A model generated the notes under the pieces. It saw only the letters and a program-made list of their open reading frames with translations. It was not told the DNA's origin and did not search any database. Of a stretch of 43,313 nt of DNA, positions 7,891-38,542 are shown piece after piece. A program made the translations under genes and the position numbers. The stretch is taken from NCBI GenBank assembly GCA_002506875.1, contig DAYJ01000014.1, positions 1 to 43,313 on the forward strand. The letters are read 5' to 3'. Each line of letters begins with the position of its first letter. Position 1 is the first letter of the stretch. Source of the DNA: Euryarchaeota archaeon UBA40 (GTDB taxonomy: Archaea; Thermoplasmatota; Poseidoniia; Poseidoniales; Thalassarchaeaceae).

Positions 7891-8943
7891 ATGGGACCCA
7901 TGGACGACCAACGACAGCGGAGCGGATGGGCTGCAGATGGCCCAGCGGGCCGCATCGCTACTCCTTTTGATTCATCTATCACAGGCAACAACCAAGTTCT
8001 CCCTGCACGCTTAGTTCGAATTCAGCATCTTGCCTGTCTTCCGCTTTGGGAGACCCAATTAAGATCTGAAAAGAAGAGTAATCATACAATTCGATCATAT
8101 ATGTCCACAGCACGACGATTCTCAGCGACAATTATTCCTGGAGAAGAGGAGGTTGATATCGAGGAAATATCAATCACAGAAATGCACGACCGCTGTAATC
8201 CAAACAACGGACGACTAGACCTATTCATTCAGGCCATCGCTAATCTAAGACCTGCGACAATCAACGCACGTATTGCTGCAGTAAGTCATCTGTTTCGTTA
8301 CATAGGGCACCGGATACCCGATTGGGTACATCGCCCCACTGCTTCTCGGCCTCTACCACGAACCCTCACTAGAGAAGAGGTCATGCGTGTTCGTAGGGCT
8401 GCTCAAGATTCAGAAAACCCCCTTGCTCATCCCATCATCACGCTTCTCCTTGATACCGGAATGCGTGTATCCGAGTTATGCGCTCTTGAGACTGGGACCA
8501 TCGATCTAGCTGACTGTTCAGCCAGAGTCTATGGAGGTAAGGGTGACAAGGATCGTACCGTACTATTCACAGAGCGCTCAGTAGATGCGATGGAAGCCTG
8601 GTTCGGGACACGGAGATTATTGATTCAAAGAAAGAATCCCCCTAACGACGATGTAGATGCCGTTTTCCTAACCAATCGCGTTGCACGTATCAGTACCCGC
8701 TATGTTCAGAAAATGATGGATGTCATTGCTGACGATGCCCTCATCCCGAGAACACGTCTGACACCTCATACCCTAAGACACAATTTCGCAACAGGCCTTC
8801 TTGAACGAGGAGTTGATCTTGTCTCAATCCAGAGGCTTCTAGGGCATTCCAACATTCAGACGACGCGGATTTATCTAGACATCAGTGATCAAACGTTGAG
8901 AGAAATCTACCATCGGGCCCAAAGTGCGTCTCTAGAAGAGTAA
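7891..8943 (+). CDS. xerA: Tyrosine recombinase, XerA/XerC/XerD-like
   Basis: Catalytic signature TGMRVSEL (Arg), GKGDKDR (Lys), HTLRHNFAT (H-x-x-R), LLGHSNIQTTRIY (His/Tyr). There are about 45 extra residues N-terminal to the core-binding domain. Confidence 0.85.
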   Translation: MGPMDDQRQRSGWAADGPAGRIATPFDSSITGNNQVLPARLVRIQHLACLPLWETQLRSEKKSNHTIRSYMSTARRFSATIIPGEEEVDIEEISITEMHDRCNPNNGRLDLFIQAIANLRPATINARIAAVSHLFRYIGHRIPDWVHRPTASRPLPRTLTREEVMRVRRAAQDSENPLAHPIITLLLDTGMRVSELCALETGTIDLADCSARVYGGKGDKDRTVLFTERSVDAMEAWFGTRRLLIQRKNPPNDDVDAVFLTNRVARISTRYVQKMMDVIADDALIPRTRLTPHTLRHNFATGLLERGVDLVSIQRLLGHSNIQTTRIYLDISDQTLREIYHRAQSASLEE

Positions 8944-19030: not shown

Positions 19031-19831
19031 ATGGGTCTTGAGTATGGATGGTTGAGGCCCACGAATGCTTATCTACGGGAGTCAAGACGCTTTGAACGAG
19101 GGTTGGGAATGGGCATAGCGAGCGCCGCATTCGACAGTCTTTGGAATGAGTACTTGGTATGGTCCGCAATCGTCGGTTCTATCACGTTTATTTGGCTAGC
19201 ACACCACTCACTCACCTACCGCTCAAAAGATGAGGGGGATGATTGGGTTGATGTCGACGGAATAGAAGTAGGCGTCTTCCCAAAACACAACGACAACATC
19301 TCCCTTGAACTAGCATGGACGATTATTCCATTTATCCTCATCATCTACTTGACATGGATTTCTTGGGGCCCGATTAACGATATCTGGGCAGACCCTACTG
19401 ATCCTGACAGCCAGTATGGCCTCGATTGCACGGATGCTGCTGCTGACCCAAACAAGTGCTACCACACCATCGATATTCAAGCGCAGCAATGGTTCTGGTC
19501 CATCGACTGCCGTGACCTCGGGCCTACACTCTGTGATGCATCACAGTATCAAGATTTGAATGGAACTACAGTCCCGGTGATATCTTTGAAAGAAGGGCAA
19601 TTCTATCTCGCAAATCTCACTTCAATCGATGTAACCCATGCTCCATGGTTCGTAGCATTCGGGGTGAAAGAGGATTCAGTACCAGGACTTGACACTCAGG
19701 TCTGGATTATTCCGACCTGTGATGAAGCCGACTGTGGCGGAGAAGAGGGAGAATCATCCCTACTTCTATGCACAGAATATTGCGGTGACGATCACGCCTA
19801 CATGGCCGCTGTGGTGAATGTTCACAAGTAA
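19031..19831 (+). CDS. coxB: Heme-copper (cytochrome c / aa3-type) oxidase subunit II with a CuA centre
   Basis: Two N-terminal TM helices and a cupredoxin domain. CuA ligands are DVTHA ... CTEYCGDDHAYM (H, C-x-E-x-C-G-x2-H-x2-M). No fused cytochrome c domain. An alternative start lies at 19109 (MGIASAAF). Confidence 0.9.
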   Translation: MGLEYGWLRPTNAYLRESRRFERGLGMGIASAAFDSLWNEYLVWSAIVGSITFIWLAHHSLTYRSKDEGDDWVDVDGIEVGVFPKHNDNISLELAWTIIPFILIIYLTWISWGPINDIWADPTDPDSQYGLDCTDAAADPNKCYHTIDIQAQQWFWSIDCRDLGPTLCDASQYQDLNGTTVPVISLKEGQFYLANLTSIDVTHAPWFVAFGVKEDSVPGLDTQVWIIPTCDEADCGGEEGESSLLLCTEYCGDDHAYMAAVVNVHK

Positions 19832-19843
19832 GGTGTTGAAGAT

Positions 19844-22234
19844 ATGAAGCAGAATACTCTTCTTCGAACTCTTGTCCTACTAACCGTTCTCGGCCTAGCT
19901 CTAAGCATGGCACCTCAAGCAGATTCTTTGCCCAATGGGATTATTGGACAAAGCGAAAAGGGGTGCACTTGCCACGGTGCCATCCCTGATTCCGGTGTGA
20001 CTCCTTCCATCGAGGGGCTCCCGGCGACATTCAACGCCAGTACTACCTACACCTTGACTATTTCATTCACAGGAGGGCCTTCGGGGCAATCAGGTGACCC
20101 CCACAACCTGGGAGGATTCAATTTAGCTGTATCTTCTGGAATTCTCGAAGCAGTCGATGATACTGTCAAGATTGATGCAGATCAAGCCACTCATAATGGA
20201 ATTGATGATGATTTAGATGGGAATGGAATTCAAGATGCAATCGAAGCCGGAGGGGCTGCAATCGTCAGTGGTAACGATTACACCTCATGGTTAGTCAACT
20301 GGACATCGCCGTCAAGCGGATCAAGCACTTTCACACTTGCAGTCAATTCTGTTAACGGAGATGGGCAAGCAAGCGCCGATGACGCTTGGAATCTAATGGC
20401 CATTACAGTTGCAGGACCCTCTACTGGAGCAGCGGCCGAGGAATTACAATCTGCAGATCCCTTTGTCGTACTTGTAACACTCATCATCGTGTCTGCATTC
20501 TTACTCGCCACCGTCATCCTCTACACATTCTATCGAGTTAGCCCGGACGGATTTAACTGGGAAAGTTTCGCCCCATGGATTATTGAGTGGTTAACATCCA
20601 CGGATCACAAGAAAGTTGGGACTCTCTACTTCCTAGCAGGATTCTTCTTCCTAGGCGTGGGAGGAATCATGGCTCTTCTAATCCGAATCCAACTTGCTGT
20701 CCCAGGCAATGATTTCCTCACTCAAGACCAATACAATGCATTCTTCACGATGCATGGAACGACGATGATTTTCTTGGCTGCTATGCCATTAATCAATGGA
20801 TTAGCGAATTGGCTAATCCCACTACAAATAGGAGCCCATGACCTTGCTCTTCCACGAATCAACGCGATGTCTTTCTGGCTACAACCATTCGCAGCTATAC
20901 TGATTTTCACAGGTGTATTCAGTGGGCAAGCTGCTGATGTAGGATGGACTGGATACGCGCCTTACATTGTCTCAGAAACCGCGCATACTGGAACTACACT
21001 ATGGGTTGCTGGACAAATTATGCTGGTAGCATCGTCCACACTTACTGGAATCAATTTCCTAGCAACGATTTGTGGCATGAGAGCCCCGGGTATGGGTTGG
21101 ATGCAGATGCCGTTGTTCACTTGGTCTATCTTCATAGCCAATCTGATGCTCTTCCTTTCCATCCCGGCTTGGGGTGTTGGACTTATTCAGGTCTATCTAG
21201 ATCGTACCATTGGCACTGCATTCTACCATGTTGCATCCGGAGGAGACCCACTTCTGTGGAGTCATCTATTCTGGTACTTCGGCCATCCAGAGGTGTACGT
21301 AGTGATTGTTCCAGCCTTCGGTGTAATCTCTGAAGTTCTTGCCACCTCTGCAAGGCGCTCCGTCTTTGGATATCGGTCGATGGTCTACGCAATGGCAGGC
21401 ATCGGTGTAGTGGCCTTCATCGTATATGGCCACCATATGTTTACCTCTGGAATGTCCCCTACCCTCCGCTTCGTAACCATGCTCACAACGATGCTTGTCG
21501 CTGTCCCAACTGGAATCAAGATATTCAATTGGCTCAAGACAATGCACAAAGGATCTCTTGTCTATCGGACTCATACTCTATGGGCGCTAGGATTCCTCGT
21601 AACATTCACCCTCGGTGGAATCTCAGGGATGTTCTTCCCCTCGCTAGCCATGGATACTCATCTACACGAGACATACTTCGTCGTTGCACATTTCCATTAC
21701 GTATTCGTAGGTGGAACTGTATTCGGCGTGTTCTCTGCTGTATACTACTGGTTCCCTAAGATGTCAGGGCGGATGATGGACGAAAAGTGGGGACTCCTAC
21801 ACTTCCTAACCGGATTTATTTCCTTCAATGGTATCTTTTGGCCAATGCACAAGCTTGGTGTCCTTGGAATGGCTCGACGTCACCACACATGGTTCATTAC
21901 AACGGATGATTACGCAAATATCCCAGCAGAAATGGCATCTTGGAACTTATTCATCACTGCCTGCGCTTTCCTCTTCTTCTTCTCAAACTTCATACTCGTC
22001 GGGAATATAATCAAGACGATAGTGTCCGGCAAGAAAGCTCCAGCAGATCCATGGGGGGGTTGGTCCTTTGAGTGGATGTGCTCCTCGCCGCCACCAACTC
22101 CTTCGTTCGATCCACACAATCCACCAGTTCTTCGAGATGCGAACGAACATATTGCATCCGAGCCTTCACGGCTTGCAAAATGGTTTGAAGGTCTCATGAT
22201 GGCAGAAGAAGACGATTCGGAGGTGAGTCATTGA
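19844..22234 (+). CDS. coxA: Heme-copper oxidase subunit I fused to a ~240-aa N-terminal secreted domain plus an extra TM helix
   Basis: The core starts near aa 245 (STDHKKVGTLYF, FFTMHGTTMIFL, WSHLFWYFGHPEVYVVIVPAFG, GHHMF, VAHFHYVF). An AAGGTG SD lies 8 nt upstream of the ATG. The N-terminal part has a signal peptide and no oxidase homology. Confidence 0.95.
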   Translation: MKQNTLLRTLVLLTVLGLALSMAPQADSLPNGIIGQSEKGCTCHGAIPDSGVTPSIEGLPATFNASTTYTLTISFTGGPSGQSGDPHNLGGFNLAVSSGILEAVDDTVKIDADQATHNGIDDDLDGNGIQDAIEAGGAAIVSGNDYTSWLVNWTSPSSGSSTFTLAVNSVNGDGQASADDAWNLMAITVAGPSTGAAAEELQSADPFVVLVTLIIVSAFLLATVILYTFYRVSPDGFNWESFAPWIIEWLTSTDHKKVGTLYFLAGFFFLGVGGIMALLIRIQLAVPGNDFLTQDQYNAFFTMHGTTMIFLAAMPLINGLANWLIPLQIGAHDLALPRINAMSFWLQPFAAILIFTGVFSGQAADVGWTGYAPYIVSETAHTGTTLWVAGQIMLVASSTLTGINFLATICGMRAPGMGWMQMPLFTWSIFIANLMLFLSIPAWGVGLIQVYLDRTIGTAFYHVASGGDPLLWSHLFWYFGHPEVYVVIVPAFGVISEVLATSARRSVFGYRSMVYAMAGIGVVAFIVYGHHMFTSGMSPTLRFVTMLTTMLVAVPTGIKIFNWLKTMHKGSLVYRTHTLWALGFLVTFTLGGISGMFFPSLAMDTHLHETYFVVAHFHYVFVGGTVFGVFSAVYYWFPKMSGRMMDEKWGLLHFLTGFISFNGIFWPMHKLGVLGMARRHHTWFITTDDYANIPAEMASWNLFITACAFLFFFSNFILVGNIIKTIVSGKKAPADPWGGWSFEWMCSSPPPTPSFDPHNPPVLRDANEHIASEPSRLAKWFEGLMMAEEDDSEVSH
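22219..22226 (+). promoter_or_regulatory. Shine-Dalgarno sequence (GGAGGTGA) for coxC
   Basis: It lies 4 nt upstream of the TTG start at 22231, which overlaps the coxA TGA stop (TTGA). This supports the non-ATG start. Confidence 0.6.
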
Positions 22235-23385
22235 GCGCAGATTACGGCCATGATAATCATGACCATCATGCCTCCCCCTGGGGACCTCATGATTGGAGTC
22301 ACGGTGCACCGCACAACTCGTTTGCACCGCTAATCATGAGCGCTGGTTTTGCGATGTTCCTATACGGATTTGCCCATGTCTTCATCGGTGGAGATGTTGC
22401 TGATCTTGGCGCACTTAGTGGTGTAATGCTTGGCCTAATCATTATCACAATGGGCTTGCTCGTCTGGTGGCGGCAAGATATGTCAGCAGATGGAGTATAC
22501 GAACCAAAGGCAACTGGTGCACCATTCCGTAATATCGATATTCGCAAGGTTTCGATGTGGATTTTCTTGATGTCCGAGATGATGGTATTCACCAGTCTAT
22601 TCAGTACCTATATCCGCTATCGTCTAGGCATCCAAAACTGTGGAGACGTCTTCCTCTCTGGGGAATGGGTCGAAGGTACGTCCGTGGTATGCTTTGAGCC
22701 CGCAGCACATCTAATTGCAAGCAGTTGGTTCCATCTCGCACCAGGAGCAGTGAACACATTTGCTTTGATTATCTCATCATTCACTATTGTCCTTGCACTC
22801 AAGACTGCGAAGATGAGCGACAAAAAGTACGCTGATAAGTATGAAATTGATATGGAAAGTGTCCAGAAGCATCGAAGTCGCAAGGTTGCTATGTTCCTTG
22901 GCTCGACCCTCTTCCTCGCAACACTCTTCCTAACGCTGAAGATGATTGAATGGTTCATTGGTTTCCCTACCCCTGGTCCTCTGACTGACCTAAATCACGG
23001 CCACTCAGAAATTGCCTCACTTTACACTGAAGGATACACTATCCATGCAAATTCATACCAGCATTACGCGTATGATACATCATATCACGATGGCCACGAG
23101 ATCCCTCACGACAGCGCCCTCTACAGCATGATGCAAGCAGGAACGCATCCAGGTGGAGTGATGATGGCGGATATCCGAGTTGGTGCTTCGACCTTCTTCG
23201 TGACAACAGGCACCCACGGAGTACACGTCCTCGCAGGAATGATTGGGCTATCCTACATGACTTTCAAGGGACTCCGTGGAGGCTATGGTCCTTCGAATGC
23301 TGTTTCGATTGAATACTTCGGCCTTTACTGGCACTTCGTTGACCTAGTATGGGTGCTCGTCTTCCCATTCTTCTATCTGTTCTGA
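22231..23385 (+). CDS. coxC: Heme-copper oxidase subunit III, enlarged (384 aa)
   Basis: The C-terminal signature GLYWHFVDLVWVLVFPFFYLF is present, with multiple TM helices. TTG start with a strong SD. It has a His-rich N-terminus and a His/Tyr-rich loop insertion. Confidence 0.85.
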   Translation: MSADYGHDNHDHHASPWGPHDWSHGAPHNSFAPLIMSAGFAMFLYGFAHVFIGGDVADLGALSGVMLGLIIITMGLLVWWRQDMSADGVYEPKATGAPFRNIDIRKVSMWIFLMSEMMVFTSLFSTYIRYRLGIQNCGDVFLSGEWVEGTSVVCFEPAAHLIASSWFHLAPGAVNTFALIISSFTIVLALKTAKMSDKKYADKYEIDMESVQKHRSRKVAMFLGSTLFLATLFLTLKMIEWFIGFPTPGPLTDLNHGHSEIASLYTEGYTIHANSYQHYAYDTSYHDGHEIPHDSALYSMMQAGTHPGGVMMADIRVGASTFFVTTGTHGVHVLAGMIGLSYMTFKGLRGGYGPSNAVSIEYFGLYWHFVDLVWVLVFPFFYLF

Positions 23386-23770: not shown

Positions 23771-23853
23771 GCTGACGTCGCATAGCCTGGTATTGCGCCG
23801 GATTTGAAATCCGGTGTCCCTTGGACTCGGGAGTTCGAATCTCTCCGTCAGCG
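23771..23853 (+). tRNA. tRNA-Ser (anticodon UGA), class II with a long variable arm
   Basis: I folded this by hand. Acceptor GCTGACG/CGTCAGC. Anticodon stem CCGGA/TCCGG with loop TTTGAAA. Variable arm GTCC-CTT-GGAC. T arm GGGAG-TTCGAAT-CTCTC. Discriminator G. CCA is not encoded. Confidence 0.9.
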
Positions 23854-23903
23854 CCTACCTTCAACTCGGGAAATCTATTCAACGCCGATGTTGCTCCGTA
23901 ACC

Positions 23904-25424
23904 ATGGGCGTGCGCAGAACGGGACCCTCACTCATCGTTCTCATGCTGTCATTGAGCCTTGTTGGATGCCTCGCTGCAGCTCCTGCAGAATGGGGAACAG
24001 GACAAGGAATGGTCTCCGTAGAAATGTCCAATGATGGGACGAGTGTGACCATTCACGAACGTCTCTCTAGTGACTCCAATAATGACATCGTTGGAGTCGA
24101 CGTTCCAGTCATTGGCTGTAACACCAATGAAAATGGTACTATTCCTCAGAAATCACAAGATGTGACAGCGTCCGACCATGGTGGAGATCCGATTAGAATC
24201 GAAGGATGGCTTGCTACATCGAAGTATTTTCCAGATGACGAAGGGCCTTCAATTCAAGCAATCATCGTCGATGTGATGCCAATTGAAGAAGCACAGGACA
24301 CGAAAGGGGTAGAGCGAGACCCTGGACAACAAGTTCCAGGTATCCAAGACAAACGATGGGCTACTCCTCTCTATGCTGAGGCTCAATTCGGGCAGGACTA
24401 CGACGCCGTCGAAGAAAAGCGTGGTTGGGCCCTGATTGGTATTATTCCAGGTAATGAGAATGTGCTCGATGGAATGGCTGGACTACAAGAATGGAATCGC
24501 CCAGTTGCCTTAGAGGGTTACATGATCCACGGATCGGTTGGAGGTACAGTGACTATTCCATCAGGTTCATCCGTACAGGATTGTGAATTGAGTTCTAACA
24601 CTCGATTTGCTGCTCACATGGTAATCACCAGCATCGAAATCGGAGGCGTGACTGCATCAGAATCCGAGGCATACTCTATGGGAAGTATACCTCTCATCGG
24701 CGGTCCACTCTACCTAATGATCGTCCTTATCGGAGGTGGGGCGGGTGCTTTCGGGACATTTACCTACGCTTCAATCCAGATTCGCACTGCTGCATCCAAA
24801 CAAGCAGCTACGCTGATGTCGGAGAAGCAGATCAAAGCAGCAGGAAGTGTTGCGAAGGAACTCAAGAAGCACAAGAAGGAAGTTGAGAGTATCAACAAAG
24901 ACAGAGAAAAATCCGAATCTGTCGGTGTAGTTGACGACACCAGTGTGAAGAAGGTCGAAATCAAAGAATTTGATATCTCAGCAACACTAGACGGACCCGC
25001 AGATTCTATGGAGGCGTTGAACAGTGTCTCACGAACCCCTGGTGCAGGAGTAATCCAAACCGAGGCATCAATCGAGATGGCCGACAAATTACGCGAAGTC
25101 ATGGAATCCGCGATGGAAGAAACAAGTTCTCCATCTTCTGGTCCAAGTGGGCGTCGAATGGGTGGAGGCGTAACTGGCAGTGGTGGCCCAGGAAGTCGAC
25201 GAACCATGTCGAGTTCGACTAGTTCCAATGAGATTGTTACTGAGGATGAATCACAACCTGAGCCAGTAAAGCGGAGCCCCCCGGTCAAGAGGAAGCGGGC
25301 GGTTCGCACACCAAAGGAAGAAATCATCGATCCTGAACCAGAAGAAGAACCAGAAACGCGGGCCGACACTCGTGAAGGTCCAAGTATCTCAGATGATGAT
25401 GAATTCTCAGACTTCAGTTTCTAA
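23904..25424 (+). CDS. Membrane-anchored (lipobox-like) surface protein with one TM and a long charged cytoplasmic tail
   Basis: I trimmed ORF 23814, which would overlap tRNA-Ser, to ATG 23904. Signal peptide MGVRRTGPSLIVLMLSLSLVGC. TM GGPLYLMIVLIGGGAGAFGTFTY. The tail is ~190 aa, Lys/Glu/Ser-rich, and ends in DDDEFSDFSF. Confidence 0.55.
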   Translation: MGVRRTGPSLIVLMLSLSLVGCLAAAPAEWGTGQGMVSVEMSNDGTSVTIHERLSSDSNNDIVGVDVPVIGCNTNENGTIPQKSQDVTASDHGGDPIRIEGWLATSKYFPDDEGPSIQAIIVDVMPIEEAQDTKGVERDPGQQVPGIQDKRWATPLYAEAQFGQDYDAVEEKRGWALIGIIPGNENVLDGMAGLQEWNRPVALEGYMIHGSVGGTVTIPSGSSVQDCELSSNTRFAAHMVITSIEIGGVTASESEAYSMGSIPLIGGPLYLMIVLIGGGAGAFGTFTYASIQIRTAASKQAATLMSEKQIKAAGSVAKELKKHKKEVESINKDREKSESVGVVDDTSVKKVEIKEFDISATLDGPADSMEALNSVSRTPGAGVIQTEASIEMADKLREVMESAMEETSSPSSGPSGRRMGGGVTGSGGPGSRRTMSSSTSSNEIVTEDESQPEPVKRSPPVKRKRAVRTPKEEIIDPEPEEEPETRADTREGPSISDDDEFSDFSF

Positions 25425-27696: not shown

Positions 27697-27770
27697 GGGC
27701 GATTGGTGTAGTCTGGATATCATCTGGCGCTTCGGACGCTAGGACACGGGTTCGAATCCTGTATCGCCCA
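27697..27770 (+). tRNA. tRNA-Arg (anticodon UCG)
   Basis: I folded this by hand. Acceptor GGGCGAT/ATCGCCC. Anticodon stem TGGCG/CGCTA with loop CTTCGGA. T arm ACGGG-TTCGAAT-CCTGT. Discriminator A. No intron, and CCA is not encoded. Confidence 0.85.
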
Positions 27771-27773
27771 CTC

Positions 27774-31635: not shown

Positions 31636-33204
31636 ATGGGCTCGGAGGAGAGGAGTGTGTCATCATCTCTCAGTCAATCGAGTCAGTTGTGGACTGGACT
31701 TCTTCTCCTTGGAATCTTGCTGAATGTTCTTGTTGTGTTTACCAGTAATCTCGGCCTCGACACCCATGTCCATATGGCCCGTGCTGCGGAGGAAGACCGG
31801 ACAGGAGAAGCAATGCTTCCATGGGGACATACACGTCCGATTGATTCGATGTCTAGTGACCCTGCATACGCACCTATCACTGAAGAGGGGTGGTTTGAGA
31901 TTATGCCGAACACCGAAACTGAGGCGCATGCTCTTGGTCTCGGACTTATGCTGATTCTGTGTGGAGGCTCCTACCTCGTATTCTGGAAACTCTTTGGTCA
32001 TCAAGCTGCAATTTCTACCACTGCGTTAATCTCAATTCATCCAACATTCATATTTGCAACTGGGCGGACCTTTCCAGAAGTCGCAATGGCAATTCTAGGA
32101 CTCATGTTAGTCTTGGCCATACTATTCCATCGGATTGAACCAAACTGGAAAGGGGCGATATTCTCAGGACTCTTTTCGACTGTGACAATGGCAGGTATAC
32201 TCCAGGTCAAGGGTATACCCATTCACTTTTCGGTAGCCTATGGCTTGCTTATCGCTGGATGGCATATACTCGATAGCATAGAACGTATGAGAATCCTGAC
32301 TCGATCACCGAAGTACGTTGCAATGGTAAGCAGTATCGGAATTGGGACTGGTATCCTCCTCTACGGTGGATTATTTGGAACGGGGACTATCGGAACGATT
32401 AGTGAATTTCCTGAACGCTATGCATTCGCATTGATAATCGCAACTTTCGATGCTATCGGAATATTCGCATTATTCGGAATGGTCCTCTGGCCATTCTTAC
32501 GAAGTACAATACAGAGGCTTGGAAGCATCGAGGATCACAGCATAGCGACTGTCACTGGATTGATTACGGGTTTAGCGACTGTAATTACAATCTACATTGC
32601 TGCACTATGGACCTATGAAGCAGCACTCTGGAATGCTGAATGGCCAACAGTAATGTGGACAATGGGGAACAACGGACGCTATATCTCGATGCTTATGCTT
32701 CCCGCAATTCTCCTCATACATCTTGTCGGACTAAACAATCCTTCAGCTGAGACACAATCAAATCCTCAATCGAAAAAGAAGGCGCTACTGCTTGGTATCA
32801 TCCTCATACTCCCCCTCTCTATCCTGGCCGCAGTACATGGCCAAACCATGTGGACTGATGATGCTGGAGAATCCATGATCGATCTCGGCCTCATGGAGGG
32901 CGACGACTTCCTATTTATCTCCGAAGCCACGCTTGGGATGCATTGGCTCTACACCTTCCGTATCGAAGTCGACCCCAACGGTGAGAATGACATTATTGGA
33001 CACTGGAGAGATACCGATTCTGGATGGATTGAGGATCTGAGTCGAAGTGAGCCATTGCCAAATCGGGGAGATTTGAAGAATGTCCGATTCATTGTACTTT
33101 CACCCGGAATCAACACCATCCCGAACGGTTGGAATGTGGTAGATGAAGGAAAAGCTCCATGGATGAATGGTGGAGGGACTTGGCAGGTACTAAGTCAATC
33201 CTGA
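31636..33204 (+). CDS. Polytopic membrane protein (about 11-13 TM) with a ~130-aa C-terminal soluble domain; possibly a GT-C-like glycosyltransferase
   Basis: The hydrophobicity pattern and overall size and shape resemble ArnT/PMT-like enzymes. I could not identify a diagnostic catalytic motif. Confidence 0.4.
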   Translation: MGSEERSVSSSLSQSSQLWTGLLLLGILLNVLVVFTSNLGLDTHVHMARAAEEDRTGEAMLPWGHTRPIDSMSSDPAYAPITEEGWFEIMPNTETEAHALGLGLMLILCGGSYLVFWKLFGHQAAISTTALISIHPTFIFATGRTFPEVAMAILGLMLVLAILFHRIEPNWKGAIFSGLFSTVTMAGILQVKGIPIHFSVAYGLLIAGWHILDSIERMRILTRSPKYVAMVSSIGIGTGILLYGGLFGTGTIGTISEFPERYAFALIIATFDAIGIFALFGMVLWPFLRSTIQRLGSIEDHSIATVTGLITGLATVITIYIAALWTYEAALWNAEWPTVMWTMGNNGRYISMLMLPAILLIHLVGLNNPSAETQSNPQSKKKALLLGIILILPLSILAAVHGQTMWTDDAGESMIDLGLMEGDDFLFISEATLGMHWLYTFRIEVDPNGENDIIGHWRDTDSGWIEDLSRSEPLPNRGDLKNVRFIVLSPGINTIPNGWNVVDEGKAPWMNGGGTWQVLSQS

Positions 33205-33704
33205 GTAGTTCCATCAACTTCGATAATCTCTGCCAACGTCTCCTTCTCTTTTCTAAACCAGCGAAGACGCTTCTTCGAAGGGTCAGGGACGTAATCATGA
33301 GACCGAAGGATACTCGGTAGCATTGAATCGGGAATCACACGAAATGGCATGACAAAAGCAGCCACTCCAAGGAACATCTCGGCGCCAGGTAGGCTGAATA
33401 CACGAAGAGGAGGGAGGGCAGTTCCTGCCATTGCGAATTTTTCAACCGCGTTCTTCCGTTCCTTCTTTGTTGTCCGTCGTCCAATCTGGATTTTGTAAAG
33501 TGTAAGAAAAGCATCCTTGAGTTCAAACGACTCTTCCTTGACCTTGTCCCACCCCGAAGAAAGGGAATCCCCCCAACCTTCAGGATCCTTGACAATGGCC
33601 TTAGCGGCCTCAGCTTGCTCTGAACTCATCGCACCCCTCGCCTTCTTAGCCCCCTTAACGGCCATTGAGCCGTAGGAGAAGATGCGGAGGAGGGCTCCAA
33701 ACAT
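33195..33704 (-). CDS. Hypothetical protein with a LETM1-RBD-like segment
   Basis: RRTTKKERKNAVEKF..LPPLRVFSLPGAEMFLGVAAFVMPFRVIPDSMLPS resembles the LETM1 block LTRRERRQ..LVPF..VPFMEFLLPV..LFPNMLPS. This is recalled from memory and not verified. Confidence 0.4.
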   Translation of the reverse strand: MFGALLRIFSYGSMAVKGAKKARGAMSSEQAEAAKAIVKDPEGWGDSLSSGWDKVKEESFELKDAFLTLYKIQIGRRTTKKERKNAVEKFAMAGTALPPLRVFSLPGAEMFLGVAAFVMPFRVIPDSMLPSILRSHDYVPDPSKKRLRWFRKEKETLAEIIEVDGTTQD

Positions 33705-33746
33705 GGACGTAGATGAGGGGTCTGGTCTTTGTCCCTATCGTCGTTT

Positions 33747-33926
33747 TTACTCGCCTCGTTCATCCTGGATCTTGGCACGGACGTCCTTACAGGTCTTAGC
33801 AATCTCAGAGAGTTTCTTGCGAAGGCGACGACTTGCTGCGTCAATACCGCGGTCGTGCTTTGCAGCATCTGCAAGGGCATCGTTCATGTTTTGAATTAGG
33901 CTATCAATATCTCCGGTTACGGGCAT
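33747..33926 (-). CDS. 59-aa basic helical protein resembling the Hc1 (histone H1-like) N-terminal domain. Absent from the supplied ORF track, which omits ORFs under 60 aa.
   Basis: My own translation: MPVTGDIDSLIQNMNDALADAAKHDRGIDAASRRLRKKLSEIAKTCKDVRAKIQDERGE. It fills an otherwise empty 220-nt gap on the same strand as its neighbours. Confidence 0.5.
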   Translation of the reverse strand: MPVTGDIDSLIQNMNDALADAAKHDRGIDAASRRLRKKLSEIAKTCKDVRAKIQDERGE

Positions 33927-34029
33927 AAGGGGTCCTGAGAATTACCCTTCAAAACTCTTCTCAATTTAGGTTCAGAATATCGAGTTAGAAACCATACCAT
34001 ACAGGGCTGTTTATGGATTGAAAATCAGG

Positions 34030-37026
34030 TCAAATTTTGGTGATGTCATCTCGTTCTTCCATATCGATTGATGCTAGAAATTCAGAATAGAGAGGGGCCT
34101 CAATCAACCCCGATCTAACCAAGGCAGATAGTGTATCAAGAACAATGCTGTCAGAATCAACACCATAGAAACGCCTCAATGCTTCACGTGTATCCGAACG
34201 ACCAAAACCGTCTGTTCCGAGGACATGGAAAGTGCCACTAACCCATGGACGAATCAAATCAGGGACTGCTGCTATGTTATCGCTAACTGCAACTGTAACT
34301 GGGACTTTGTCGTCTAATTGCTGTTGAACCCAACTTGATTTGGCTGCTTGACTTGGATGGTGACGATTCCAATCTTCAGATTCCATGGCCTCACGTCGAA
34401 GTTCACCATACGATGTTGCAGAGTAAACTTCAGTAGAGATTCCGAGAGAGCGTAGTTTTGTTGCAGCAATTTCAACCTGGGGGAGTATAGATCCTGAACC
34501 AAGAAGGCGAACTTGAGCATCATCCTCTGTCTCGATACGATGTAACCCTCTCAAGATTCCTTCATCGGCCTGTTCGGGTTTGGAAGGCATTTCCAAATTT
34601 TCGTTATATGCGGTAATGTAGTACATTACATCAGATTCATCAACATACATCTCATTTATTCCATGACGAATAATTGTCGCCATCTCATATGCGTAAGCCG
34701 GATCATATGCACGTACTGCTGGATTAGACATAGCAAGAAGAAGTGAGTGACCATCCTGATGTTGCAGGCCCTCTCCATTGAGCGTTGTTCGTCCCGAAGT
34801 TGCACCTATTAGGAAGCCGCGGCAACGGCTATCAGCAGCAGACCATACTAAATCTCCAATTCTTTGGAAACCGAACATCGAGTAAAAGATGTAGAACGGG
34901 ATTGTAGGTGTTCCTTGAGTAGCATAAGATGTACCGGATGCAATGAATGTCGACATCGCACCAGCCTCATTGATTCCCTCTTCAAGAATCTGCCCAGATT
35001 TGCTTTCTTTGTAGCGCATCAATACCTCATAATCCACAGGTGTGTACAACTGTCCTGAAGGTGAATAAATTCCCAACTGGCTAAACAATGGATCCATTCC
35101 GAAAGTTCTAGCTTCGTCTGGAACAATTGGTACAATTCGAGAACCTATGCCATCTACTCGTGTTAAATTACGCAATAATCGAACAAATGCCATTGTCGTG
35201 CTTACAGCTTGTCCATTTTGAGAGCCCGCATCGAATTCAGAAAATGTCTCCACGGGAGGTAGTGAAAGATCTAGTGGATGTGGGCGTCGTTCGGGTAAGA
35301 ATCCGTCCAATGACTCACGACGTTCACGTAAGTATGCAACTTCATCTAGACGATCCTCTGGAAGGATATATGGTAACTTTTCAAGTTCTTCATCTGAAAG
35401 AGTCAAGCCGATTTTATCTCTCATGAAATGAAGAGCAGAATGATCTGCTTTCTTTTTCCCATGCGTTGCGTTGCGTCCTGCAAATGTTGGACCTAGCCCG
35501 TATCCTTTGATTGAACGGGCGAGAATTACTGTTGGCCGACCTTTACAAGCAATAGCGGCTTTGTAAGCAGAGTAAATCCGATGTAAATCATGCCCTCCCA
35601 TATCATCTGTTAGAACTTCAAGTTCAGAATCTGATAAATGGTCAACCAAAGAGGCAAGATCAGGGGAATTGAATAGTTCCTTCCGGATAACTTCGCCGGA
35701 TGCTGTCATGAGACGTTGCTCATCGCCATCAGTTAGGCTTGCTAGGCGGGTCGCGAGTAGACCATGGACATCCGCTGCAAATAACGGGTCCCACATACGC
35801 CCCCATAGACACTTGATGACGTTCCATCCAGCACCAGTAAATCGAGAGGCGAGTTCTTGAACGATTTTCGTATTACCTCGAACTGGACCATCTAGTCGCT
35901 GAAGATTACAATTCACAATTATAGTCAGATTATCGAGGCCTTCTCGGCTTGCAAGAGTTAATTCTGAGAGAGATTCAGGTTCATCGGATTCTCCATCACC
36001 CATGAAGTACCATACTCGGCTACTGTCGGTATCCACGACCCCTCTATCTCTTAGATATCGATTGAAACGGGCTTGGCGTATGGCAGTCATTGCACCAAGT
36101 CCCATACTTACAGTAGGGTATTCCCAATATTCTGGCATCAAACGAGGGTGGGGGTAAGACGAGAGGCCGTCCGTGAAAGCCTCACGGCGAAAATGTTCGA
36201 TTTTATCGATAGTGAAACGACCTTCCATCCAAGATCTCGCATATAGCCCAGGGCTAGCATGACCCTGCCAATAGACGTGATCACCATGACCATCTCCATC
36301 CTTACCGCGGAAAATATGATTCAAACCTACTTCCCATAGAGTTGCAATACTGGCATATGTCGAGATATGACCACCAATACCATCGAAATTCTTGTTAGCA
36401 CGTGTAACCATCATCATTGCATTCCAACGAAGGATGTCTAGGATTCGATTCTCTGTATCGATATCACCTGGGTAATCAGGTTCCTGATGAGGAGAGATTG
36501 TGTTGAGATACGGCGTCTCGGTTAACTCACCGACTGGAACTCCGGCTTCTTTTGCCGCTTCTACAGTATTGGACAGAATCTGATGAGCACGTAACGACCC
36601 CTTATGCTGATTAACTGCAATAATTGAATCACGCCATTCAACAATTTCCTCAGGGTCATCCGCTGTAGAGATTGGATTGATACTTGGAATGGCCTCCGAT
36701 TCACCGGTTGGTGGAAGTTCATCCGAAGAAGATGAATGGCCATCATCTAAATCAGAGGTGGGGGGAAGTTGAGATGTTTCTTCGTTTTCAATCTCAAATT
36801 CAGCACATATTTGACCAACTGGGAGAATGTCTCCAACATCCCCTGTTAAACGAGTGACTACTCCTGTAACTGGAGATGGAATATCTACTGTTGCTTTATC
36901 GGTCATCACCGAGAGTAGAGGTTGGTCCTCAACAATAGATTCCCCGACGGCCACGAGCCATTCAACTACCTCTCCTTCAACAACGCCCTCTCCAATATCT
37001 GGAAGGCGAAAGGAATGAACGACCAT
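34030..37026 (-). CDS. aceE: Pyruvate dehydrogenase E1 component, homodimeric AceE type, with an N-terminal lipoyl-attachment domain
   Basis: The first ~80 aa form a lipoyl domain (FRLPDIGEGVVEGEVVEWLV..LLSVMTDKATVDIPSPVTGVV; Lys44 codon at 36895-36897). A Pro/Ser/acidic linker follows, then colinear similarity to E. coli AceE: RWNAMMMVTRANK, GGHISTYAS, YWQGHASPGLYAR, LSSYPHP, FMGDGESDEPES, NCNLQRLDGPVRGN, GRTTLNGEGLQHQDGHS, LGTDGFGRSDTRE. Confidence 0.92.
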   Translation of the reverse strand: MVVHSFRLPDIGEGVVEGEVVEWLVAVGESIVEDQPLLSVMTDKATVDIPSPVTGVVTRLTGDVGDILPVGQICAEFEIENEETSQLPPTSDLDDGHSSSSDELPPTGESEAIPSINPISTADDPEEIVEWRDSIIAVNQHKGSLRAHQILSNTVEAAKEAGVPVGELTETPYLNTISPHQEPDYPGDIDTENRILDILRWNAMMMVTRANKNFDGIGGHISTYASIATLWEVGLNHIFRGKDGDGHGDHVYWQGHASPGLYARSWMEGRFTIDKIEHFRREAFTDGLSSYPHPRLMPEYWEYPTVSMGLGAMTAIRQARFNRYLRDRGVVDTDSSRVWYFMGDGESDEPESLSELTLASREGLDNLTIIVNCNLQRLDGPVRGNTKIVQELASRFTGAGWNVIKCLWGRMWDPLFAADVHGLLATRLASLTDGDEQRLMTASGEVIRKELFNSPDLASLVDHLSDSELEVLTDDMGGHDLHRIYSAYKAAIACKGRPTVILARSIKGYGLGPTFAGRNATHGKKKADHSALHFMRDKIGLTLSDEELEKLPYILPEDRLDEVAYLRERRESLDGFLPERRPHPLDLSLPPVETFSEFDAGSQNGQAVSTTMAFVRLLRNLTRVDGIGSRIVPIVPDEARTFGMDPLFSQLGIYSPSGQLYTPVDYEVLMRYKESKSGQILEEGINEAGAMSTFIASGTSYATQGTPTIPFYIFYSMFGFQRIGDLVWSAADSRCRGFLIGATSGRTTLNGEGLQHQDGHSLLLAMSNPAVRAYDPAYAYEMATIIRHGINEMYVDESDVMYYITAYNENLEMPSKPEQADEGILRGLHRIETEDDAQVRLLGSGSILPQVEIAATKLRSLGISTEVYSATSYGELRREAMESEDWNRHHPSQAAKSSWVQQQLDDKVPVTVAVSDNIAAVPDLIRPWVSGTFHVLGTDGFGRSDTREALRRFYGVDSDSIVLDTLSALVRSGLIEAPLYSEFLASIDMEERDDITKI

Positions 37027-37099
37027 GTCTCAACCAACCTCTTGTTGAGTATTGCTCTGCACACCTGCATTTATGCATTATGAATTCAGTAGAGTCATA

Positions 37100-37921
37100 C
37101 TATTTCGGAATCTGAAGAGGTGGTTGCCAATGTCCATTCAAACGTGCATGATCCAATAAGTGCCAATAGACACTCACCACTGCATCAGATTTGGATAGGA
37201 TTTCCTCATCATTTGCATGTTCTGCACTCCTTAATCTCCTCCATGAAAGACGAGAATGAAATCGAAGAGCAGGGTGGTGGAGAGCAGGTCCATTTACAGG
37301 CAGATAATGACGTGTGTACCATTCTCGTTCAACGATACTCGCTGCAATCATTGATTCCCGAATCGATTCCCATCCGTTGACCTTGCCTAAGGCATCACGA
37401 CCTGTCTTGTGACGAAGAAGAAAAACTGGATTTATCGAGGAGTCCATGGAGATGCCTACGGAGGCGAGTACGGGTGCCATCCAAGGTGCAATATATCCTC
37501 CAGGTGCTCTGAACCAAGGTCGGAAAGCTGAACCTACTTTGAAAGAAATAAGTTCGATGGATTTCTCAAGTATTGATTTGAATTCATCAGGACGAGGGCC
37601 CCATGCAGACCAACAAATATGATTCCAGCCATGGATACCAATGGTAATACCAGGCCTTAATCCAATAATATACTGTAAACGTTGAACGAAATTAGGATCC
37701 TCAAGTTGTTCGCCAATCACAAAGAAGGTGATCCTTGAATCCTCAGACTGTGAAGACCACCAGGACTCAAAGCCATCAAAACCTCGACTTAAACGCTCAC
37801 TCATCGTTCGAAGAGATTGATTTTGTGGCCAAGGAGTATCCTTAGAACGGCTAGGGTGACCAGATATTGCTGGATGATGATGAACATCATCTGTATCAAG
37901 GGAGCACCAGATTCGTTGCAT
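37100..37921 (-). CDS. Polysaccharide deacetylase (NodB/CE4-like) family protein
   Basis: ITFFVIGEQL, IGIHGWNHICW and WFRAPGGYIAPW resemble NodB motifs 1-3, but the canonical Asp pair is not obvious. The ATG at 37921 overlaps the upstream stop (TAATG). An alternative start is 37804 (MSERLS). Confidence 0.5.
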   Translation of the reverse strand: MQRIWCSLDTDDVHHHPAISGHPSRSKDTPWPQNQSLRTMSERLSRGFDGFESWWSSQSEDSRITFFVIGEQLEDPNFVQRLQYIIGLRPGITIGIHGWNHICWSAWGPRPDEFKSILEKSIELISFKVGSAFRPWFRAPGGYIAPWMAPVLASVGISMDSSINPVFLLRHKTGRDALGKVNGWESIRESMIAASIVEREWYTRHYLPVNGPALHHPALRFHSRLSWRRLRSAEHANDEEILSKSDAVVSVYWHLLDHARLNGHWQPPLQIPK

Positions 37922-38502
37922 TATCTAATGCCTCCAGTGGTAATCCAATACGATACATACAGTACATCATTACCGTCATCAGATGTCACCCATCGTTCTA
38001 CCTCGGATGGGAATCCATCATACCGCTCAACCGCAGAAAGTATAGTACGAACGCCTCCTTCATTCCGCGGATCCGCCATCAACTCAACCACATCCACTTC
38101 ACATTGTCTTGCTACGGAAATCATAGCATTGATACTCACCGTAGCAAGACCATGCCCCCGCTCCTCGGGTGCAATCCAATAACCAAGGTTCCAATGGATA
38201 CCTCTTCGGGTCCTCTGCTGTTCAGGAGTTCTAAATCGAACTACATCGAATCCGATAATACCGAGATATCCTCCTCCAATATTCTCTCGAATTAACCAAT
38301 GATGGTAATTCGAAGCATTCGGTCCCGAGGATACGTCGACAATAAATGAGGCAATTTGGGGCCCTATTGGCTCGTTACGAGACAACCATGGCATAGCACG
38401 ATGCACAGAGTCAGGGTCTTCCCTGAACATCTCGACTATTTTCATCACATCCACCTCCTTTAGAGGGACAAGGACATGATCCTCGCCTGCTGGGTGACTC
38501 AT
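37921..38502 (-). CDS. GNAT-family N-acetyltransferase (RimJ/RimL-like)
   Basis: NLGYWIAPEERGHGLATVSINAMISVA is an acetyl-CoA-binding R/Q-x-x-G-x-G/A type motif. The size is right for the family. The track start at 38517 is GTG; the first ATG is at 38502. Confidence 0.7.
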   Translation of the reverse strand: MSHPAGEDHVLVPLKEVDVMKIVEMFREDPDSVHRAMPWLSRNEPIGPQIASFIVDVSSGPNASNYHHWLIRENIGGGYLGIIGFDVVRFRTPEQQRTRRGIHWNLGYWIAPEERGHGLATVSINAMISVARQCEVDVVELMADPRNEGGVRTILSAVERYDGFPSEVERWVTSDDGNDVLYVSYWITTGGIR

Positions 38503-38542
38503 TTGAGTGGGGTGCACGAATGTCGCATGACAAGACAGTGAT

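Follow-up and report, generated by a model that had tools for sequence, protein, structure and literature searches.

A lipoyl domain fused to the homodimeric-type pyruvate dehydrogenase E1 of marine Thalassarchaeaceae, and its parallel in SAR11

Substrate channelling by lipoyl swinging arms is classically illustrated by the 2-oxoacid dehydrogenase complexes, in which the arms reside on the E2 core. Here we describe a gene that carries such an arm on the E1 component. The gene lies on the minus strand (34030..37026) of a 43,313-nucleotide stretch of Euryarchaeota archaeon UBA40 (contig DAYJ01000014.1; the whole stretch is hereafter called the window), a member of the Thalassarchaeaceae within the Poseidoniales (Marine Group II, MGII), and it encodes a lipoyl-attachment domain, a flexible linker and a complete homodimeric-type pyruvate dehydrogenase E1 (AceE, or E1p). 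We consider it rather probable that the fused domain acts as a private, E1-tethered extra swinging arm that feeds a shared E2/E3 in a hybrid complex, the fused protein not being self-sufficient. The fusion is an unusual variant of a known machine; it is not unique and in all likelihood not partner-less.

Architecture and authenticity of the fused gene

The open reading frame (ORF) is uninterrupted and comprises 998 codons from an ATG start. The features on which the argument depends are the following.

34030..37026, minus strand: fused gene for lipoyl domain, linker and homodimeric-type pyruvate dehydrogenase E1 (AceE); intact ORF of 998 aa plus stop
36787..37026, minus strand: lipoyl domain, residues 1-80 (PF00364, E 3.8e-18)
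36895..36897, minus strand: codon of Lys44, the predicted lipoylation site, in the motif SVMTDKATV (AAA, read from the sequence)
36661..36786, minus strand: flexible linker, residues 81-122, rich in Glu, Asp, Ser and Pro (hypervariable; predicted local distance difference test score, pLDDT, below 50)
34030..36660, minus strand: AceE-type E1p body, residues 123-998 (TIGR00759 and alignment with E. coli E1p)
35905..36000, minus strand: motif binding thiamine diphosphate (ThDP) and Mg, G343-D-G ... N372-C-N374 (invariant alignment columns, aligned to the E. coli motif)
37027..37099, minus strand: candidate promoter and translation-initiation region, i.e., the 73-nt intergenic region 5' of the start codon with an A/T-rich TATA-like stretch, TTCATAATGCATAAATG, and a GAGGT motif (read from the sequence)

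In the 998-aa protein, Pfam recognises Biotin_lipoyl at residues 5-76 (E 3.8e-18) followed by Transketolase_N (193-405), PDH_E1_M (594-814) and Transketolase_C_1 (831-957), and the last three form the three-domain transketolase-like single chain (TK_N, PDH_E1_M, TK_C) of the AceE class. The NCBIfam model TIGR00759 (aceE) covers residues 123-986 with 1182.6 bits and passes its equivalog cutoff of 859.9, whereas TIGR03186, an exception model for AceE-like 2-oxoglutarate dehydrogenase, scores 1053.9 bits and stays under its own cutoff of 1408.3. Residues 9-877 of E. coli E1p (PDB 1L8A) align end to end with residues 124-990 of the fused protein (872 bits). The likeness to the E. coli enzyme extends to the whole E1, including the ThDP motif, the catalytic His and Glu residues (the counterparts of E. 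coli E522, E571, H407 and H640 are E638, E687, H522 and H756, all of which are conserved) and the N-terminal E2-binding segment. This last element is a DPxExxxW segment whose residues D124, E130 and W131 are invariant in fused and unfused MGII AceE, and whose counterpart in E. coli E1p we take to fall within the E2-binding region. In contrast, E. coli AceE has no lipoyl domain, and its three substrate domains are located on AceF, which is encoded by the next gene. The Pfam, TIGR00759 and E. coli alignments together confirm the prediction, made in the preliminary description of this DNA, that the E1 part is a full-length homodimeric-type pyruvate dehydrogenase E1.

The N-terminal domain matches PF00364 with 65.5 bits (gathering threshold 22.1), and its best solved single-domain match is the E2 lipoyl domain of Thermoplasma acidophilum (2L5T, 74 bits). 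An AlphaFold (AF2) model of residues 1-100, built on a 55-sequence alignment, folds residues 1-82 into an all-beta domain with pLDDT 84-90 and leaves the linker disordered from residue 83 on (pLDDT <50). Foldseek places the domain model among solved lipoyl domains at TM scores of 0.79-0.86 (target-normalised). Lys44 is located in the hairpin turn between the modelled strands 36-41 and 46-50, aligns with the lipoylated lysine of the solved domains and is part of a TDKA motif, not of the biotinyl motif (A/V)MKM. No fused homologue and none of 55 lipoyl-domain sequences deviates at this position, so that the conservation of the lysine, on which the preliminary description had made its reading depend, holds. 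Profile match, codon and structure match confirm residues 1-80 as the textbook lipoyl-attachment domain described there, with its lysine codon at 36895-36897, and lipoylation of Lys44 is predicted. The Pro/Ser/acidic linker noted at the same time is present as well, although it measures about 42 residues and not about 60. Its sequence is hypervariable among the fused homologues, and its composition is always acidic and Ser-rich or Ala/Pro-rich.

An artefact, i.e., two adjacent genes falsely joined by a frameshift, a mis-assembly or a chimeric contig, would seem to be suggested by four entries (P0125-P0127, P0130) in which a short stand-alone 'lipoyl protein' is located 5' of a truncated AceE. 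This is the separate upstream lipoyl gene against which the preliminary description had cautioned. However, such genes turn out to be frameshifted assemblies of the same fusion: the tails of these lipoyl proteins are out-of-frame translations of the fused gene, the entries originate from error-prone long-read or low-quality assemblies, and tblastn on one fused locus (L007) recovers the gene as a lipoyl part and two E1 pieces that are not in frame with one another. Moreover, intact fused ORFs recur across independent assemblies. Fused full-length homologues (P0001-P0004, 99-73% identical) represent four 90%-identity clusters with 353 member sequences in total, and intact fused genes are also present on contigs of 1.9-2.0 Mb and in several metagenome-assembled genomes (MAGs) of Candidatus Thalassarchaeaceae at NCBI. 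Near-complete contigs of the fused clade are taylor_4__contig_21158 (1.93 Mb), boult_4__contig_16558 (2.02 Mb) and 21580_2__contig_33182 (1.97 Mb), the last being nearest to the window. These genes sit in differing, rearranged neighbourhoods, and the host genomes range from 46 to 65% GC. In unfused relatives no lipoyl remnant was found 5' of AceE. The ratio of nonsynonymous to synonymous substitution rates (Nei-Gojobori) amounts to 0-0.08 over 74 codons of the lipoyl part and to 0.01-0.04 over a 200-codon stretch of the E1 core, which points to strong purifying selection on the lipoyl part. With all this, the probability that the fusion is an artefact is negligible. The gene is also represented among transcripts: metatranscriptome contigs from three marine sets, at least 99% identical, span the lipoyl-coding part, one of them extending 70 nt 5' of the ATG, to 37096, and a contig of a fourth marine metatranscriptome covers the E1 N-terminus at 95-99% identity.

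Several database entries related to this gene deserve a comment. With the N-terminal 140 residues as query, many short 'lipoyl-only' proteins were retrieved; a family of free lipoyl carriers was considered for them and rejected, as they are frameshifted fused genes or truncated E2 N-termini. In four NCBI MAG entries (HII49424.1, RAH12481.1, MBC89010.1 and RCH73913.1; 958 aa) the protein is started at Met41 (MTDKATV...), inside the lipoyl domain, and DAC38350.1/HIH52662.1 (962 aa) is likewise begun at Met41, with the loss of half of the domain. A Met41 start as the explanation of every 958-aa entry is true for the NCBI entries, whereas P0268 owes its length to a C-terminal assembly frameshift. 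All fused NCBI entries are named only 'pyruvate dehydrogenase, homodimeric type', and together with the Met41 starts this makes the lipoyl-AceE feature invisible in current annotation. A different kind of N-terminal extension, of 33 residues, is found in P0032 and about 25 similar 922-aa MGII AceE entries (e.g., L006 10001-12769), where it overlaps an upstream 499-aa gene. It is probably a mis-called start and not a domain, because tblastn similarity to the fused protein starts only at residue 123 of the latter.

Origin of the arm and the SAR11 parallel

The best 120 matches to the fused protein are all MGII AceE-type sequences. AceE, which the preliminary description had called atypical for archaea, is so in general, but within the Poseidoniales it is the rule. 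The nearest unfused AceE (69% identity, 889 aa) is labelled Thalassarchaeaceae or Poseidoniales. A neighbour-joining tree built on 861 E1-core columns groups the fused proteins as one clade in 100 of 100 bootstraps, with unfused Thalassarchaeaceae AceE as sister, and all MGII AceE are monophyletic with respect to proteobacterial and SAR11 sequences. The monophyly of the fused proteins indicates that the fusion probably arose in a single event, within a subclade of MGIIb (Thalassarchaeaceae).

The fused lipoyl domain is 67-74% identical to the lipoyl domains of MGII E2 proteins and only 32-37% identical to those of SAR11. The segment around the lysine, SVMTDKATVEIPSP, is identical in the fused and E2 domains of a high-GC genus of the clade, and the window has one D-for-E change. 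Judged by these identities, the fused domain arose by duplication of the lipoyl domain that the organism's own E2 carries, and this relationship argues that the arm of the resident E2 would already have been a substrate of the orphan AceE before the fusion.

How widely this architecture occurs was addressed by a HMMER search of 1.84 billion representatives with residues 1-280 as query, from which the best 150 of 26,592 proteins with E <= 0.001 were classified. Among these 150, 121 match in the AceE N-terminal part only, 26 in the lipoyl domain only and three in both, and the last belong to two lineages: the clade of the window (P0311) and an AT-rich lineage (P0334 and P0335; 37% identity). Other N-terminally extended AceE proteins among the same 150 show low-complexity sequence or mis-called starts and no lipoyl domain. 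With P0335 as query, a scan of GTDB genomes assigned the AT-rich lineage to the Pelagibacteraceae (SAR11), and complete genomes of cultured strains were among those found. All complete SAR11 aceE genes (30 of 30) encode the lipoyl-linker-AceE order in proteins of 1010-1039 aa; a further three genes are truncated where their contigs stop. The same scan returned 47 AceE genes of other bacteria, nearly all proteobacterial, and a lipoyl fusion is absent from every one of these. The SAR11 loci are L010-L041 and L050 (e.g., L010 10001-13965 and L019 10001-14312).

In SAR11 the fused aceE is located directly upstream of aceF, the E2 gene. In 23 genomes aceF encodes one lipoyl domain. In the other 10 it specifies a lipoyl-less product of only about 300 aa, made up of the peripheral subunit-binding domain (PSBD) and the catalytic domain, and the aceF ATG overlaps the stop codon of aceE. 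These ten operons thus encode a single lipoyl domain, that on E1, which must be the carrier there. In this comparative analysis, SAR11 genomes give strong support to the idea that a lipoyl domain tethered to E1 can be a working swinging arm.

This bears directly on an alternative in which docking or regulation, and not catalysis, is the main task of the fused lipoyl domain, e.g., as an anchor of AceE to E2 or E3 or as a reporter of the acetylation or redox state of the lipoyl pool. Binding of other proteins to lipoyl domains is known (the L2 domain, for instance, is bound by pyruvate dehydrogenase kinases, and structures of this kind appear among the Foldseek matches). Moreover, the cognate partner of a bacterial AceE would be an E2 of the aceF type, which the MGII E2 is not, so that an extra contact could aid assembly. 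However, the lysine and the motif SVMTDKATV(E/D)IPSP are invariant, which pure docking does not require, and in the ten SAR11 genomes with a lipoyl-less E2 the E1-borne domain must be the carrier. We therefore regard a mainly docking or regulatory role as unlikely.

The MGII and SAR11 fusions resemble each other in several respects. Domain order, the long linker and a similar total length are common to both (e.g., Ca. Pelagibacter sp. Uisw_113, NZ_CP159809.1), the E1-borne domain is in either case copied from the lineage's own E2, and both groups are abundant marine plankton with small genomes. The SAR11 E1-borne domain shares 62% identity with the SAR11 E2 lipoyl domain, and lipoyl domains are thus 62-74% identical within but only 32-37% identical across the two lineages. 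Since each E1 domain is closest to the E2 domain of its own lineage and the AceE proteins form separate monophyletic clades, the SAR11 fusion represents the same kind of event, independent of that in MGII, and common ancestry of the two finds no support. The genetic settings also differ. SAR11 has a classical aceE-aceF operon whose E2 bears one or zero lipoyl domains, whereas in MGII AceE is an orphan, and the one E2 observed comes from an operon of the E1alpha-beta type and has kept its own lipoyl domain.

The architecture is thus common, being standard in SAR11, as the preliminary description had allowed for; that it might also be already characterised is not reflected in any paper that we found. 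A published description of a lipoyl domain on homodimeric AceE, in MGII or in SAR11, was not found in a literature search that was incomplete for subscription journals, and a paper on SAR11 aceE copy number leaves the lipoyl fusion unmentioned. The lipoyl-AceE of SAR11 is certainly visible in domain databases.

Lipoyl domains are otherwise placed on E2, E3 or E1-beta, as had been stated for this DNA from the outset and as the published cases agree. The only published E1-borne case that we found is that of Zymomonas mobilis, as reported at second hand, where the pyruvate dehydrogenase complex has an N-terminal lipoyl domain on the E1 subunit in addition to those on E2 (Neveling et al., 1999, cited in PMC7873978). 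According to the same account the domain is on the beta subunit of a heterotetrameric (alpha2beta2) E1, which is another E1 family, in a bacterium with a normal pyruvate dehydrogenase cluster. Lipoyl domains on E3 are known from P64K of Neisseria meningitidis, PdhL of Alcaligenes eutrophus, PdhD of Mycoplasma hyopneumoniae and haloarchaeal LpdA fusions. In these proteins, as here, the swinging arm was moved or duplicated onto a peripheral subunit, and the fused domain closely resembles the lipoyl domain of P64K (1GJX) in its fold (TM 0.81). In contrast, the arm is tethered there to the reoxidising enzyme and here to the loading enzyme, E1. As an N-terminal fusion coexisting with a normal E2 in a MAG of the fused clade (see below), the MGII protein belongs with these lipoyl domains on non-E2 subunits, and it differs from all published cases of that class in its host subunit, the homodimeric AceE. 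The sharing of one lipoyl-bearing E2 by several E1s has an actinobacterial likeness: as far as the cited accounts describe it, Corynebacterium AceE and OdhA share one E2, AceF, and domain fusions redistribute functions, OdhA being a fusion of an E2 catalytic domain and E1o (PMC7568260, PMC10415282). OdhA, in these accounts, gained an acyltransferase domain, has no lipoyl domain of its own and borrows the arms of AceF, whereas the fused MGII E1 gained a lipoyl domain and has no acyltransferase.

With the lipoyl-AceE fixed and selected in an uncultured marine archaeal clade and, independently, in SAR11, these proteins offer a natural experiment on the need for a core-anchored arm, on how an orphan acquired E1 is plugged into a resident complex and on the competition of two E1s for a single-arm E2. 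We suggest, tentatively and with less than even confidence, that MGII and SAR11, streamlined plankton lineages which rank among the most abundant of the ocean, converged on placing the arm on the homodimeric E1, and that an E1-borne arm may be fully sufficient for catalysis, as is implied by the SAR11 genomes with a lipoyl-less E2. If this is true, channelling in pyruvate dehydrogenase would be organised from the periphery (E1) and not from the E2 core, the complexes perhaps being smaller or of altered stoichiometry, and in MGII a horizontally acquired bacterial E1 would be coupled to an archaeal E1alpha-beta-type E2/E3.

Partner genes and the proposed catalytic cycle

The absence of E2 and E3 genes near the fused gene, first noted for its immediate surroundings, extends to the whole 43-kb window: Pfam searches of the large ORFs detected no E2, E3, LipA, LplA or E1alpha/beta, and six-frame tblastn with MGII LipA, E1alpha, E1beta, E2 catalytic domain, E3 and LplA matched only the fused lipoyl domain. 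Unfused AceE is equally isolated in all other MGII loci examined, and the missing neighbours are thus a property of MGII AceE and not of the fusion. The partner genes of MGII are found in a Thermoplasma-like operon with the order LipA-E1alpha-E1beta-E2-E3, with LplA about 6-7 kb downstream (L008, L090). The E2 of this operon (420-424 aa) consists of a single lipoyl domain, a PSBD and a catalytic domain with the active site DHRVVDG.

Evidence that a genome with the fusion also has these partners comes from MAG GCA_049616045.1. This MAG has an intact fused AceE of 1005 aa (P0310, MGB1432769.1) on contig JBMZGS010000030.1, and LipA-E1alpha-E1beta-E2 on contig JBMZGS010000017.1, where the E2 N-terminus (P0142, MGB1432464.1) keeps its own lipoyl domain. 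In a sister locus with 89.6% DNA identity to the latter contig (L090), the operon is complete with the E2 catalytic domain, E3 and LplA. The MAG and its sister thus indicate a full E2/E3/LipA/LplA set for a fused-clade genome, and we infer the same for the window's own species. The sequence runs that contain the fused gene are all metagenome-sized, so that same-genome proof does not come from the runs. The operon locus L008 (contig 21580_2, 2,019,020 bp) was considered as the partner locus of the fused locus L007 (contig boult_4, 2,019,152 bp) and rejected: despite a size gap of just 132 bp and their origin in one study, GC contents of 41.7% and 64.8%, respectively, and a tetranucleotide correlation of r -0.41 indicate different organisms.

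In our reading, a duplicate of the E2 lipoyl domain was attached through the linker of some 42 residues to the resident E1p, a homodimeric enzyme of bacterial type, at its N-terminus. For the private arm the following cycle can be proposed (all steps are predictions). Lys44 would be lipoylated by LplA or LipA, after which the ThDP site of the same E1 dimer would decarboxylate pyruvate and reductively acetylate the tethered lipoyl-lysine, in cis or across the dimer. The E1 would dock by its conserved N-terminal DPxExxxW segment on the PSBD of the operon E2, as in E. coli, allowing the acetylated arm to swing to the E2 catalytic site and yield acetyl-CoA, and the arm would finally be reoxidised by E3. 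The 'self-acylating E1' of the preliminary description survives as the first step of this cycle, for which E2 and E3 are still needed. Two E1s, E1alpha-beta and AceE, would share one E2 with a single lipoyl domain. Because one arm would have to serve two E1s, a private arm would guarantee substrate access to AceE, a plausible advantage.

Some points weigh against this proposal. The same-genome evidence for the partners comes from one MAG, whose high-GC genus within the fused clade is not that of the window; binning may produce chimeric MAGs, and in GCA_049616045.1 the E2 gene runs off its contig. The E2 of MGII is part of an operon of the E1alpha-beta type, and binding of a bacterial-type AceE by its PSBD is a prediction. 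The full-length AlphaFold model (36-sequence alignment), with pLDDT 22-44 over residues 1-128, gave no information on docking of the arm. That the linker together with the N-terminal AceE segment, which is disordered in E. coli E1p crystals, would reach either active site of the dimer is deduced from geometry.

The same gene context could be read as a self-contained or minimal system, in which the lipoyl-E1 dispenses with a classical E2/E3 core. It would acetylate its own arm, another enzyme (e.g., the neighbouring GNAT) or hydrolysis would remove the acetyl group, and some other redox partner would reoxidise the arm. The 43-kb window without E2 or E3 would fit, and so would the synteny of AceE with a deacetylase-GNAT gene pair throughout MGII, the three genes being on one strand in the window and in L093. 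However, the identical synteny exists beside unfused AceE, where the deacetylase-GNAT genes are convergent with AceE and thus not co-transcribed with it. The fused-clade MAG and its sister genome between them carry the complete E2/E3/LipA/LplA set, the fused domain copies that of E2 almost exactly, also in the residues around the lysine, which agrees with use of the same E2 and E3 sites, AceE has kept its E2-docking N-terminal segment, and the SAR11 fused E1 always stands beside an E2 catalytic gene. A self-contained system is accordingly quite improbable, and the 'rewired or minimal 2-oxoacid dehydrogenase' suggested at first is not supported as a partner-less enzyme in view of the E2 operon in GCA_049616045.1 and the complete operon with E3 and LplA in L090.

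A further alternative retains the carrier function and changes the partner or the substrate: the arm could serve a different, second E2 elsewhere in the genome, or AceE could use a 2-oxoacid other than pyruvate. The 1054 bits obtained with TIGR03186 may be taken in its favour, but they are far under the 1408-bit cutoff of that model, whereas TIGR00759 passes its own. The derivation of the fused domain from the lipoyl domain of the operon E2 also speaks against it, and the E2-type relatives listed in the searches with the fused lipoyl domain and the MGII E2 are all of one type. We regard a second E2 or another substrate as unlikely, although we give this possibility some weight. The private arm feeding the operon E2 and E3 is the reading that we prefer.

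Gene neighbourhood and other features of the window

The gene content of the window fits an aerobic archaeon, with FEN1, a cytochrome oxidase operon and SF1/SNF2 helicases. The fused gene is preceded by genes for a polysaccharide-deacetylase-like protein and a GNAT (Acetyltransf_3) at 37100-38517, neighbours that had been named from the sequence and that Pfam confirms. This pair is syntenic with AceE throughout MGII, fused or not, and stands at equivalent positions in L002, L003, L006, L007, L092 and L093. In the typical unfused arrangement FEN1 and AceE are followed, convergent with AceE, by the deacetylase-GNAT pair and then by an SF1 helicase and an RDD protein. Compared with L002, L003, L006, L007 and L092, the AceE gene alone (window 34025-37026) is inverted relative to both conserved flanks. 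As a result, AceE in the window and in the 90%-identical lineage L093 is co-directional with, and directly downstream of, the GNAT-deacetylase pair, whereas elsewhere the genes are convergent. Around the inverted gene, a search for inverted repeats gave only chance-level matches of 14-15 nt.

On the other side of AceE, an Hc1-like neighbour had been proposed. An Hc1 gene does occupy the equivalent position in relatives, but Pfam gave no hit on the small ORFs of the window. In unfused Thalassarchaeaceae (L003/L004/L005, 6539-9823) a 1094-aa gene with no Pfam hit lies between the Hc1-like gene and AceE, and it is absent from the window (compared region 33195-34030). Further features of the window are listed below.

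7891-8943: tyrosine recombinase (Phage_integrase family)
19031-23385: cytochrome oxidase operon, with an unusually long subunit I (796 aa) and a subunit III-like protein of 384 aa
23771-23855: tRNA-Ser(TGA)
27697-27771: tRNA-Arg(TCG)

The ORF at 23814-25424 overlaps the tRNA-Ser gene, and its true start must thus be further downstream.

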